Below, piece after piece: positions 41,633 to 51,500 of a DNA stretch of 64,000 nucleotides; position 1 is the first letter of the stretch; the number at the start of each line of letters is the position of its first letter. The position numbers and the translations under genes were made by a program. Location of the stretch: assembly GCA_964016885.1 (NCBI GenBank), contig OZ024740.1:343542001-343606000 (forward strand), written 5' to 3'. The notes under the pieces were generated by a model that worked only from the letters and a program-made list of their open reading frames with translations, searched no databases and was not told where the DNA came from. This stretch comes from Eledone cirrhosa. Its lineage: Eukaryota.

Positions 41633-41683
<51 letters not shown>

Positions 41684-41834
41684 ATACTTTGGGAGGGTCA
41701 TGTTGCCAATAAGAAATACACGCACCAGTTGCTTTCACTTCAATTTAATTTAATATATATTTATAAATTTACAAATTTATAAATTTCTGGTTGGTTGGTT
41801 GGTTCCACAACCAGATAGTTGTTTATATATATAT

Positions 41835-41879
41835 AGTCATAGTTCTTTCGTCACACACTCTGTGACCTCTTCAGTGACT
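41835..41879 (-). ncRNA. minimal hammerhead ribozyme in PLE pLTR
   Basis: AGTCA-CTGAAGA-GGTCACA GAGTG TGTGAC-GAAA-GAAC-TA-TGACT. Confidence 0.85.
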
Positions 41880-42175
41880 GGGGATTTCTTTCTTCGTTTC
41901 TGTGCCTTTCCTTTCTTCTATCCTACGCCATTTTGTTTGTGTGTGGGTTGCGTGCTCAGTTTGCGCATGCGCCACATCCGGGTGTCTGTGTGTGTTTGTG
42001 TTCATTTTTCTATTTTTCTATTTATATTTGTTTGTTTATTTATTTATTTATTGTTGGTTGGTTGTTTGTTCTATGTGTGTGTGTGTTTTCATTTTGTCTT
42101 GTGTGTGTTTTCATTTTGTGTGTGTTTTCAATTGTAAGTTGTTTATATATGTGTGTGTGTGTTTTCATTTTGTCC

Positions 42176-45100
42176 TTAATTGTAAGTTGTGATGTTGCTG
42201 TTCCACTCATATTTTCTATTTAATTTTGGTTTTAATTCTTTTATGCTTACTGCCTCTGTAATTTGCCTAAACATTGCGTCTTTCTTGTGTGTGGATTCTA
42301 TTTTTATTTCTATGCTCTCTAATTTACCCCTGTGTTCTATCTTAGCATGTTGGTAGAGCACAGATGATTCTTTACTATCTTGGAGGTCTCGCCAGTGTTC
42401 ATTTATTCGTTCCCCTATACTACGAGCTGTCTCACCTATGTACACTATATTTTTGTTTCTACATTGTCCCTCAGTACATCTTATGCTATATACTACATTT
42501 CTAGTTTTACAGTTAATATGGGGGCTTATTTTACAGGTTATACATTTCTTATCTATACATGAGGGTCTTTGGAACGGGTATGTCTTGCTAATAAGTGTTT
42601 TTACGGAGGTACCAGGTCTTTCTACTATCTTAATATTGAGATTATGTTTCTTTAGGGCCCTTCTAAATTTGTAGGCTAGTTCACCTCTAGGGGTTGTATT
42701 GATGAACATTACACTCTGGTATTTATTGCTATCATACCATGAGTTTATTCTATTGGCCTTGTTCTTAGTTCTTTCTATTCTATTCCAAAATTTGCTCCTA
42801 TACAAGGGGCAGGTCCCATTTATGTCATTATTTACCATTTTTTCCCATTTGGTTCTGGCTCCTTTATACACTCTGATTCTATCTCTCTGATTGTAGCCAG
42901 ATAACTGCATACGGTGGATGAAGTGTTGTATGTGTCTCTCTAGTTCTTTGGGGTTGCACATGCGGGACACATTTCTCATCACCCGTACCAAATCCGCAAT
43001 CAGTATGTTGATTTTGGTATGGTCCGAAATGGCCGAGTTTCGGTGGATCAGATGTTTGGAAGTCATGGGTTTGGCATAATGGGAATGGAGGATTTGTTTT
43101 TGGTTGTTAATAGTATCTAACCAGAGCTCTGTGTCTAGTACAGGTAATCGATGGTTGGGGTGTCTACTTGGGTAGTCTATAGTAACTCTAATGCTCTGGT
43201 GGATGGAGTTTGCTATTTGCTGGATGCTTTCCATTGTGTTTTTCTCAGGTTCCTGACTGTTCTTTAGTGGGGGTGTCTTAACTACGATGTTTATATCATC
43301 TACGTAGCGGGAGTACATTATCAGGGTTAATCTGTCTTCTAATTGTTCTTTAAGTTTTTGTTTAAGTCTACTGTCCCACCATACCATGAACAAGTTAGCT
43401 ATGTCGCCTGCAATGCTAACACCAATGGCTGCTCCTTCCTCTTGGGCATATGTTTTACCATTAAATTTGAACATATGTTCCTTAAGGGTTAATTTTATGC
43501 TGGCCCCTACCGCATGTGCAATCATTTTCTTCAGTTCATCGTGGTTTTCGGGTGTCCGTATGGCTCTGGTCCACCCGTTCCATCTATCTGTGTGGGTTTT
43601 CTTGGCCATTGAGGTAATGGTAGGTGGTCTGCCTCTTGCTGGTCTTGTAGGGCACAGGTTGCTAAGGTCATAAGTGTCTAGGTAACTATTACTATGGGTA
43701 AGCTTAAGTAGAAGTCCCAGCTCACTGGTATCAGTCCCACGGAACTCAACCTTGCTCTCGCTGATCATTTCGACGCATTTCTCCACAGCAAAATCCACAT
43801 CAATAGATGGATACAGGGACACAACATCCATACTGCCTATTATGCAGTTTGTTAGGTCCCCAGATCGGTTACCCGCGTCGATTCTGCTGAGGAGGTCCTC
43901 CGTGCTGTCACACACATCTGGGGACATCTCAATGATGGGGCGTATGATCAGGGAGAGGAAGTAGGACAGTCTGTAGTTACTAGCAATGTTAGCCCCACAG
44001 ACTGGCCGTGTTGGTGGTCCCGCGACAGGGTCCCAGCCCGTTTTATGGTCCTTTCGAAGCCCATACAACGCCGGCACGTCATTGTTCCAGGCCTGGAAGT
44101 TGTTGGCAGTCCTTTTGTTGGGCTGCATTATATTTGTCCACATCACCATATGGGCATTGAGGGTTTTTTCTCTGTCCTCATGCTCCTGTGGTGTTACCTC
44201 TCTTGTGTTAGTGATGTGGGGTTGCATTGCCTGGATGTAGTTTGGCAGGCTGTCAACCGACATTCTGCCAGACTTGTCTGTTGGAAAGCATGCTATCTCT
44301 CCATTACGCGAGCGCTGCATGAGCTTACGCAAGCCATTTGCAGATTCTTCTCCCAGTTGCTGGGCCTCTATTCTATTATGCTTCTTGCTATACTGTTCTA
44401 TAATATTTCTAAGTTCGGATTTAGCTATACTAAATTGTGCTTCTGTTTGTTCATCGACCTGCGACGGCAACTGCGTGCGTTTGTTAAATGGCAAAGTCGT
44501 GGCGTGGACTCGTCGTAGGTCGAATGATTTATCGGAGGGATTATAAAACGGAGAGTTCCAGGCTGCTGCTTTATGTGTACTTGCGCTATTGTTAGTTGTG
44601 TTGTTTCTATTTCCACCAACAGCAGCAGCCTCAGCTTCATGGTTGTTTCTATGTCTCTCATAATTACTCCTGTCTCTTTCCACTGGCTCAATGTTGTTAT
44701 CTACCCTATTTTGTGTGTCTGTGTGTTCGTCTTGGTTATTCTCTTTGTCCTTAGTCTCCCTACTCCTTTTAATCCTATTACTTTCTCTTATTTCTCTGAT
44801 TTCTGTGCTACTGTCATTACTTGTTTTCTGTGTCTGTGTGTTTGTTAAGATTGTAGTGGTGGTGAGAGGCATTGAATGTGTGTGTGTTGTTGTTGTTGAT
44901 GTGTGTTGTTGTTGATGTGTGTTGTTGTCTCCGTGTGTGTGTGTGTTATCGTTGTTGTGTGTGTTGTTATTGTTGTTTGTGTTTGCTTGTCTGTTGTTGT
45001 TGTATCTGGGTATGTTGCTGTTGTTGTTGTTGTTGATGTGTGTGTTGTTGTTATTGTTGTCTCCGTGTGTGTTGTTATTGTTGTTTGTGTCTGCGTGTCT

Positions 45101-50028: not shown

Positions 50029-50912
50029 CCAAACATCTGATCCACCGAAACTCGGCCATTTCGGACCATACCAAAATCAACATACTGATTGCGGATTTGG
50101 TACGGGTGATGAGAAATGTGTCCCGCATGTGCAACCCCAAAGAACTAGAGAGACACATACAACACTTCATCCACCGTATGCAGTTCTCTGGCTACAATCA
50201 GAGAGATAGAATCAGAGTGTATAAAGGAGCCAGAACCAAATGGGAAAAAATGGTAAATAATGACATAAATGGGACCTGCCCCTTGTATAGGAGCAAATTT
50301 TGGAATAGAATAGAAAGAACTAAGAACAAGGCCAATAGAATAAACTCATGGTATGATAGCAATAAATACCAGAGTGTAATGTTCATCAATACAACCCCTA
50401 GAGGTGAACTAGCCTACAAATTTAGAAGGGCCCTAAAGAAACATAATCTCAATATTAAGATAGTAGAAAGACCTGGTACCTCCGTAAAAACACTTATTAG
50501 CAAGACATACCCGTTCCAAAGACCCTCATGTATAGATAAGAAATGTATAACCTGTAAAATAAGCCCCCATATTAACTGTAAAACTAGAAATGTAGTATAT
50601 AGCATAAGATGTACTGAGGGACAATGTAGAAACAAAAATATAGTGTACATAGGTGAGACAGCTCGTAGTATAGGGGAACGAATAAATGAACACTGGCGAG
50701 ACCTCCAAGATAGTAAAGAATCATCTGTGCTCTACCAACATGCTAAGATAGAACACAGGGGTAAATTAGAGAGCATAGAAATAAAAATAGAATCCACACA
50801 CAAGAAAGACGCAATGTTTAGGCAAATTACAGAGGCAGTAAGCATAAAAGAATTAAAACCAAAATTAAATAGAAAATATGAGTGGAACAGCAACATCACA
50901 ACTTACAATTAA
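50029..50912 (+). pseudogene. inverted 3' fragment of the PLE ORF (thumb + GIY-YIG)
   Basis: SKHLIHRNSA...EWNSNITTYN is identical to the C-terminus of copy 2. Confidence 0.92.
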
Positions 50913-51208
50913 GGACAAAATGAAAACACACACACACATATATAAACAACTTACAATTGAAAACACACACAAAATGAAAACACACACAAGACAAAATGAA
51001 AACACACACACACATAGAACAAACAACCAACCAACAATAAATAAATAAATAAACAAACAAATATAAATAGAAAAATAGAAAAATGAACACAAACACACAC
51101 AGACACCCGGATGTGGCGCATGCGCAAACTGAGCACGCAACCCACACACAAACAAAATGGCGTAGGATAGAAGAAAGGAAAGGCACAGAAACGAAGAAAG
51201 AAATCCCC

Positions 51209-51253
51209 AGTCACTGAAGAGGTCACAGAGTGTGTGACGAAAGAACTATGACT
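51209..51253 (+). ncRNA. minimal hammerhead ribozyme in inverted pLTR
   Basis: Same motif on the + strand. Confidence 0.85.
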
Positions 51254-51466
51254 ATATATATATAAACAACTATCTGGTTGTGGAACCAACCAACCAACCA
51301 GAAATTTATAAATTTGTAAATTTATAAATATATATTAAATTAAATTGAAGTGAAAGCAACTGGTGCGTGTATTTCTTATTGGCAACATGACCCTCCCAAA
51401 GTATAACAATATCGGTTTCAACACACGATTTCAGATAAAGAATCTTGCTAAACAAATTCAGAAACG

Positions 51467-51500
<34 letters not shown>

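Follow-up and report, generated by a model that had tools for sequence, protein, structure and literature searches.

An apparently young Penelope-like element with a long reverse transcriptase finger insertion at a (TA)n locus of Eledone cirrhosa

The element and its surroundings

The window analysed here is a 64,000-nt stretch of the Eledone cirrhosa genome (assembly GCA_964016885.1, contig OZ024740.1, positions 343,542,001 to 343,606,000 of the forward strand), and coordinates below are positions within it. Between two (TA)n runs it holds what is almost certainly a Penelope-like element (PLE), which has a repeat unit of 4281 bp and is present as one full copy, one truncated direct copy and one short inverted copy, with a single complete frame among them. 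Read 5′ to 3′, the element consists of the inverted arm, the junction, a copy truncated at unit position +279/280, the full copy, 24 further bases of the start of the open reading frame (ORF) and (TA)n. Its parts, including the pseudo-long terminal repeats (pLTRs), the reverse transcriptase (RT) and the GIY-YIG endonuclease (EN), and those of the element around it are listed here.

40679..41634, plus: left part of a truncated Hydra-type PLE, the host element (inverted pLTR 40679-41015, EN C-terminus 41018-41263, then 3′ untranslated region (UTR))
41635..41679, unstranded: left (TA)n target flank (TRF, 22.5 copies, 100%; end sequence)
41678..42175, minus: terminal pLTR, made of the 3′ UTR and the first 24 nt of the ORF, without a tail, ending at +22 AATATCG
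41835..41879, minus: minimal type I hammerhead-like motif of the terminal copy (CUGAAGA, stem II, GAAA, weak stem III; motif scan)
42176..45982, minus: complete ORF of 1268 aa with N-terminal region, Asn-rich linker, RT, thumb, Cys linker and GIY-YIG EN
42203..42559, minus: Cys linker and GIY-YIG EN with Nematis-type spacing (by-eye comparison with the text of PMC8557442 Fig. S2/S7)
43445..43825, minus: RT segment from motif A (D719) to motif B′ (Q847), which exceeds that of canonical PLEs by about 70 aa and sits where telomerase has its insertion in fingers domain (IFD)
44558..45250, minus: Asn/Thr-rich low-complexity in-frame insert, aa 245-475, 67 of 231 residues Asn, the same in both tandem copies
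45983..49985, minus: upstream tandem copy, 5′-truncated at unit +279/280, source of the upstream pLTR
46116-46160, minus: hammerhead-like motif of the upstream copy (motif scan)
49986..50028, unstranded: junction of the inversion, where templated switch-backs give 20 nt from the inverted arm and then 22 nt from the long arm (44-bp tandem there)
50028..51470, plus: inverted, 5′-truncated arm, from unit +2923 to the end, with an ATG at 51387
51209-51253, plus: hammerhead-like motif of the inverted arm (motif scan)
51411..51470, plus: tail of the inverted arm, 60 nt, ending at +82 AATATCG
51470..51498, unstranded: right (TA)n target flank
51499..52610, plus: right part of the host element (51499-52173 assigned by position only)

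The original prediction, made from the letters of the window, had described a very recent, apparently intact PLE with an uninterrupted RT/GIY-YIG frame of about 1270 aa that starts within the end of the upstream pLTR, and with copies that differ at one coding position, and on each of these points our analysis agrees with it. The stop-to-stop frame 42176-46015 (minus strand) yields 1268 aa from the ATG at 45982 with zero internal stops, and the catalytic residues are intact. The ATG lies within the repeated end, the terminal copy continuing 24 nt beyond it before (TA)n begins. A single base of 4002 separates copy 2, the upstream one, from copy 1 (42902 T vs 47183 G), and the inverted arm has the copy-2 base at this site and is otherwise identical. 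The change is a missense one, with Leu1027 in the full copy and Phe in the other two. Since this column is variable among 281 aligned proteins (query plus 280 relatives; Tyr 79, Phe 77, Leu 18, gap 22, the rest others), the Leu/Phe difference is unlikely to inactivate the protein, and we rejected it as an inactivating change.

One difference in 9557 copy-bases corresponds to an age of 0.03-0.06 million years (My), with an upper 95% bound of 0.16-0.32 My, at the rate of 0.0036 per site per My quoted in PMC13282606 or half of it; an RT error as the cause of the difference would make the element younger. This copy may be active, as had been proposed, and the balance tips slightly towards a family that is still active. 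Around the (TA)n run that holds the element lies a truncated Hydra-type PLE, and this host element and the long RT insertion are additions to what had been noticed before. The host pLTR at 52174-52509, which has a CTGATGAG hammerhead-like motif near 52420, and the left arm share 99.4% identity over 337 bp, and insertion into a host with arms so alike also speaks for a young element. The host EN end has CxxC and CxH motifs that were matched by eye to Fig. S7 of PMC8557442, and a Pfam search with it gave no match. The right arm of the host element extends about 100 nt beyond the end of the left arm, possibly as a long tail, and by eye this Hydra-type PLE, itself young, is unlike the published Hydra-1_Obim.

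Tandem and inverted layouts and a young age are already known for PLEs, including those of Octopus vulgaris. Because 336 recently active PLE insertions from 31 families have been reported in that species (PMC13282606), a young intact octopus PLE is not news in itself. What is added here is a Nematis-like lineage, probably unnamed, with a finger insertion of telomerase length, together with a testable clue to the origin of inverted PLE insertions.

The protein, its finger insertion and its relatives

The single ORF carries an RT as well as a GIY-YIG EN, and the element has pLTRs derived from a partial tandem, an inverted 5′ copy and a tail at one end, as is characteristic of PLEs with an endonuclease (EN+ PLEs). 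The Cys linker reads C1142-x4-C1147xxC1150-x7-C1158 and is followed by the EN residues Y1165, C1169, C1174, Y1181, G1183, R1192, H1196, H1212, H1217, E1243 and N1255, among which C1169, C1174, H1212 and H1217 form a CCHH motif. Of the 281 aligned proteins, 186 span the RT core and 157 of those also the EN, fragments being excluded from the counts. D719, Q847, D895 and D896 are kept in all 157 (query included), in which the linker, CCHH and EN residues of the query are matched in 153-157 cases. The N-terminus can be aligned to two long relatives at 28-33%, so the reading frame looks complete, and the protein is likely to be competent.

Relatives were collected in several steps. A phmmer search with residues 520-1268 gave 46 matches of 3211 candidates, the best being a hypothetical Octopus vulgaris protein (68%), and further searches gave 268 matches of 6193 and 161 of 2652 shorter proteins, of which the best 120 were used in each case. 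A profile search matched 29,874 representatives at E≤0.001 and 1611 at 1e-30, and the best 150 were used. The named sources among the matches listed are O. vulgaris, O. bimaculoides and the sea cucumber Holothuria leucospilota. Median pairwise identity within the family is 36% (1500 sampled pairs). Pfam returned nothing for the full query protein other than one sub-threshold unrelated match, and for 43 aligned members it gave weak RVT_1 in 5 and weak GIY-YIG in 5; the Atlas clusters closest to a homologue have PLE-type families. A sequence search of PDB found no chain of a PLE or of telomerase reverse transcriptase (TERT), the best matches being bacterial defence RTs at motifs B′-C (E 9e-5 and 4.5e-5). 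The EN lies C-terminal of the RT in 165 cases and N-terminal in 1. Two proteins have unusual layouts: P0171, a family member, has the EN at residues 1-177 ahead of the RT and none behind it, which could reflect tandem read-through or a permuted form, and P0045, a host F-box/leucine-rich-repeat gene model of O. vulgaris, starts with about 150 aa of the RT of this PLE family and is probably an annotation chimera or an exonisation.

The RTs of PLEs are the sister group of telomerase. The interval from the motif A Asp to the motif B′ Gln is 128 residues in the query. By pattern, both motifs were found in 184 of the 281 proteins with a spacing of 117-148, and by alignment the spacing is at least 110 in 186 of 186 RT-core proteins (117-261, median 129; query included). 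Within the insertion, E754, R780, G784, P787 and W804 are near-invariant, each being present in 166-175 of the 186. Counts from the text of PMC8557442 Fig. S1 give 58 for Penelope, 60 for Poseidon, 60 for Nematis and 57 for Neptune, and, in the same figure, 81 for Naiad-Amil and 102 and 119 for two Chlamys elements; human TERT has 115 and Tetrahymena TERT 149. PMC8557442, in which the PLEs of Repbase were surveyed, describes canonical PLEs as lacking an IFD, with sporadic exceptions in Coprina only. In the literature searched, which included few subscription journals and did not extend to Repbase or Dfam, we found no description of a PLE lineage with a C-terminal EN and an IFD, and we think it rather likely that the lineage is unnamed in print.

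For residues 325-480 of the O. vulgaris homologue, predicted-structure matching gave an aligned length of 126 residues with one 185-member cluster, of 84-89 with seven PLE-type clusters (Pfam HTH_animal, DUF8422 or RVT_1) and of 100 with a green-algal cluster, and there was no TERT row among the 9 structure matches listed. A PDB sequence search with the insertion alone gave weak unrelated matches (best E 0.01) and no TERT, and the Atlas feature matches for the insertion were short, uninformative clusters.

The original prediction had taken the linker CIDKKCITC as typical of Neptune-related clades. The linker is indeed present (C1142-C1150), and according to PMC8557442 it is common to Neptune, Nematis and Naiad; its spacing, however, is of the Nematis form. 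The distance from CxxC to the next Cys is 7 residues in the query and likewise in 108 of the 157 family proteins, and H-x4-H spacing is found in 155 of the 157. Judged by eye in PMC8557442, three Nematis references have about 7 residues after CxxC and H-x4-H, whereas Neptune references have about 25 or more and H-x5-H. As linker and H-x4-H spacing match Nematis, the Neptune label is unsupported. The EN thus appears to be of Nematis type; the placement of the lineage, which draws on a by-eye comparison of motif spacing with three Nematis sequences, is provisional. The reduced C-x2-5-CxxC linker and H-x4-H of Nematis are both there by eye; the absence of a fingers insertion that marks Nematis is not (128 vs 60 residues). 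In an internal tree of 157 proteins with no named outgroup the query groups with two relatives (support 0.94), which is uninformative on clade. The RT1 motif is KDHK in 164 of the 186 RT-core proteins.

We put the probability that this is a genuine, very young insertion of an autonomous PLE, from a Nematis-like lineage with a conserved RT finger insertion of about 70 aa, at roughly two in three. Several points weigh against it. The relatives were retrieved with insertion-bearing queries, which makes the figure of 186 of 186 partly true by construction, and the family set drew on the best 150 of the 29,874 profile matches at E≤0.001. Some Chlamys RTs also span 102-119 residues in the A-B′ interval (counts from the text of PMC8557442), KDHK and RW are shared with the Hydra clade rather than with Nematis, and polishing could have homogenised the copies or hidden differences. 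The tandem or its near-identity might be an assembly artefact, as one difference in 4002 bp is within reach of polishing errors and such structures are hard to assemble (PMC8557442). We consider this very improbable, because the only N gap in the window (30258-30457) is more than 11 kb away, the flanks are not duplicated, the ends match those of four older independent insertions, the junction contains templated switch-backs and parts of the host element lie on both sides; the tandem is very probably a real genomic structure. A plausible, though in our view doubtful, alternative is that the element is an ordinary member of a catalogued clade (Nematis or a Repbase/Dfam 'Penelope' family) whose insertion is lineage-specific and has no special function. 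This would agree with the Nematis-type spacing of linker and EN, with the existing catalogue of 31 PLE families of recent activity in O. vulgaris (Table 1 of PMC13282606) and with the lack of a TERT match for the insertion, but in PMC8557442 canonical PLEs are given as lacking an IFD, with exceptions listed among Coprina only, and the insertion residues are near-invariant across proteins of median 36% identity. Were the Nematis-like lineage borne out, a large C-terminal-EN lineage with an IFD would alter the clade map of PLEs, given that the IFD was previously reported absent from C-terminal-EN PLEs (PMC8557442), and it would bear on whether the IFD is ancestral or was repeatedly gained.

Insertion ends and the origin of inverted arms

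Four short insertions of the same family also lie in the window:

9977..10534, unstranded: short head-to-head insertion, sister subfamily
38046..38777, unstranded: short head-to-head insertion, sister subfamily
52812..53066, unstranded: short head-to-head insertion of the same subfamily (95-99%), with its join at the pLTR palindrome
61684..61935, unstranded: short head-to-head insertion of the sister subfamily, with its join at that palindrome too

Each of the five insertions of the family in the window consists of two arms placed head to head, with (TA)n to either side, though (TA)5+ runs make up 6% of the window, which bears out the (TA)n specificity proposed earlier. In all five the end of one arm lies at about +24 and that of the other at +81-84. 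The motif AATATCG, noticed post hoc, occurs at two sites only in the unit, +22 and +82 (0.17 expected), and both of these end sites offer ATAT pairing to the target. The 60-nt gap between the ends corresponds to the PLE 'tail', which is usually 30-40 bp (PMC8557442) and in the anole PLE lies between two RT start sites (PMC11167929). Three of the short insertions belong to a sister subfamily 87-92% identical to the large element and the fourth is 95-99% identical, and position -16 is G in all 8 short arms and A in all 3 copies of the large element. The idea that the large element is the engine of the system therefore does not fit: the three are of the sister subfamily and the fourth differs at -16. 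We rejected the large element as the parent of the short insertions on these grounds and on its younger age. The short elements look like heavily truncated insertions rather than a separate non-autonomous family, and a palindrome at -84..-57 is the exact join in two of the four.

Within the sister subfamily, position +16 is C in the tailed arm and T in the tail-less arm of three out of three insertions, and it is the only site with such a pattern. Because arms made from one template would match, this difference favours two template segments, and the two arms would not have been copied from a single one. In the large insertion the tail-less arm, at 8.3 kb, is longer than the tailed arm of 1.4 kb. 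In vitro, a PLE from an anole was seen to nick the two strands, to extend both and to start internally (PMC11167929). We lean slightly towards a joining of two separately primed cDNAs. In such a scheme the upstream pLTR would drive a multi-unit RNA, translated from the ATG just beyond the pLTR, and the element protein would cut the two strands of a (TA)n run. The first nick might prime at the terminal +24 end through ATAT pairing, giving the tail-less arm, and the other internally at +84 in an upstream, ORF-linked copy, giving the tailed arm, and microhomology would link the two cDNAs head to head, in the shortest insertions at the palindrome of the pLTR. For the large insertion the first cDNA would have run for 8.3 kb and stopped at +279, the second would have started at +84, about 194-195 nt would have been skipped, and the join would have involved switch-backs, with two switches between the arms (20 and 22 nt). 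On the multi-unit RNA the skipped stretch would lie near the protein-binding region of the anole element. The two-primer scheme resembles the twin priming of L1; in the passages of related literature examined there was no proposal of twin priming for Penelope.

Against two primers it can be held that the arm-specific base amounts to a single site seen in three insertions, that a private variant, -39 G, is common to both arms of the insertion at 38 kb, which fold-back copying explains equally well, and that palindrome joins (2 of 4 short insertions) are the pattern read as self-priming in PMC3846280, although annealing of two cDNA ends at the palindrome would look like self-priming. Fold-back self-priming of one cDNA would give inverted arms whose ends are set by EN resolution at AATAT^CG, self-priming having been proposed in PMC3846280 and EN-mediated tail resolution in PMC8557442. 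Beyond the shared -39 G, it would suit the two short insertions joined exactly at the native palindrome and the copy-2 base in the inverted arm of the large element. We nevertheless think it unlikely, as the +16 difference has the same direction in 3/3 sister insertions, one of them palindrome-joined, and the junction jump of the large element from +279 to +2923 would need a 2.6-kb loop-out. Still less probable is that hammerhead cleavage gave a 4281-nt circular RNA, from which the tandem arose by rolling-circle reverse transcription. Each unit has one hammerhead-like motif, the tandem is seamless and near-identical, and circles are reported for retrozymes (bioRxiv 10.64898/2026.07.22.740005), but a monomer circle holds one copy of +16, so that no arm-specific base would be possible, ribozyme mutants were without effect on insertion in vitro (PMC11167929), and the motif has no Rfam support, no hammerhead being found at the gathering threshold or at E≤10. 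Stems I and II do appear in the fold of an identical copy (z -1.1, not significant alone), seven RNA folds gave z-scores from -1.9 to +1.0, none convincing alone, and sub-threshold Rfam matches to microRNA families reflect a palindromic short insertion.

How tandem and inverted PLE copies form and how microsatellites are targeted is a problem named as open in PMC8557442. The intact ORF, the two exact end sites and the arm-specific marker make two-primer joining and fold-back copying directly testable in this PLE family. A bolder and quite speculative reading takes the element to be intact, still mobile and part of an unnamed PLE clade widespread in marine invertebrates, which would be the first to combine a C-terminal EN with a finger insertion of telomerase length and in which the insertion holds a short RNA-primer duplex, as in the role of the IFD, and double priming occurs at two fixed sites on one multi-unit RNA. 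If this were true, an IFD-like hold on a short duplex would suit priming on ATAT in (TA)n, and double priming would account for the tail and the inverted pLTR of PLEs generally.

Neighbouring repeats and comparison with known systems

Further CTGANGA...GAAA hammerhead-like motifs lie in the window at 397, 1765, 2343 and 10935, of which those at 1765 (minus) and 2343 (plus) are a near-identical inverted pair, perhaps from a third PLE family. At 32492-34427 (minus) there is a remnant of a non-long terminal repeat retrotransposon (RVT_1 E 2e-10, zf-RVT E 4e-6), in two frames split by a (TATG)n run and with a restriction-like endonuclease motif by eye, which we take to be Dong/R4-like. Repeats of about 430 bp at 12833-13439 and 34748-35330 are 96% identical in inverted orientation, with a further related piece. 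Inverted repeats at 22065-22252 and 22584-22772 (92% identical) surround a short frame at 22235-22612 that by eye resembles the end of a Tc1/mariner transposase and has no Pfam match. A very abundant repeat resembling short interspersed elements (SINE-like), with copies about 81-97% identical, includes a head-to-head pair near the start of the window, and a tRNA-like Rfam match at 17385-17455, just over threshold (31.7 bits), is probably a SINE head.

SINE-like repeat copies: 117-249, 642-884, 5443-5631, 14959-15080, 15539-15689, 20772-21045
SINE-like repeat copies, continued: 27277-27711, 35671-36076, 39274-39501, 53063-53278, 59010-59219

Among known PLEs, Nematis resembles the element in its C-terminal GIY-YIG EN with CCHH, short linker, H-x4-H and, by eye, a similar segment from thumb to linker. 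It differs in its A-B′ interval (60 vs 128 here), in KTHK rather than KDHK at RT1, in DK(G/R) rather than DKS, in AMG rather than GAAIG at B′ and in its nematode hosts, the relatives here being named from Octopus and a sea cucumber. Neptune shares a C-x2-5-CxxC linker, a C-terminal EN and microsatellite targeting, whereas its A-B′ spacing of 57, PKIHK at RT1, long spacer after CxxC and H-x5-H set it apart; membership was rejected on the 7 residues after CxxC and H-x4-H, against about 25 or more and H-x5-H. Hydra has KDHK at RT1, the RW motif, (TA)n targets and marine invertebrate hosts in common with our element, but it has no CCHH or IFD, a CxCx5C linker and a divergent B′, and membership was rejected for an element with CCHH and YVDD, an insertion and no CxCx5C linker. 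Naiad and Chlamys also have an insertion between A and B′ (Naiad-Amil 81; Chlamys 102 and 119), and Naiad has (TA)n targets; their EN is N-terminal and accompanied by a CxC domain, which led us to reject them, and the sequence of the insertion is not visibly alike. Penelope and Poseidon were rejected as they have no Cys linker before the EN, where C1142-C1150 is present here.

In their layout, Poseidon of Anolis (PMC11167929) and Pen2a of Adineta (PMC3846280) are close to the element, with tandem and inverted pLTRs, an ORF that begins within the pLTR, a tail bounded by two fixed ends, a hammerhead motif (hammerhead-like here) and, in Adineta, Asn-rich in-frame inserts. Their tail is 30-40 nt, compared with 60 nt here, and priming in Anolis Poseidon is not homologous to the cut DNA, whereas both ends of our element match the target (ATAT). 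With the IFD of telomerase RT the insertion shares its position and length range; no TERT match came up for it by sequence or among the 9 structure matches listed, and any homology would be hypothetical.

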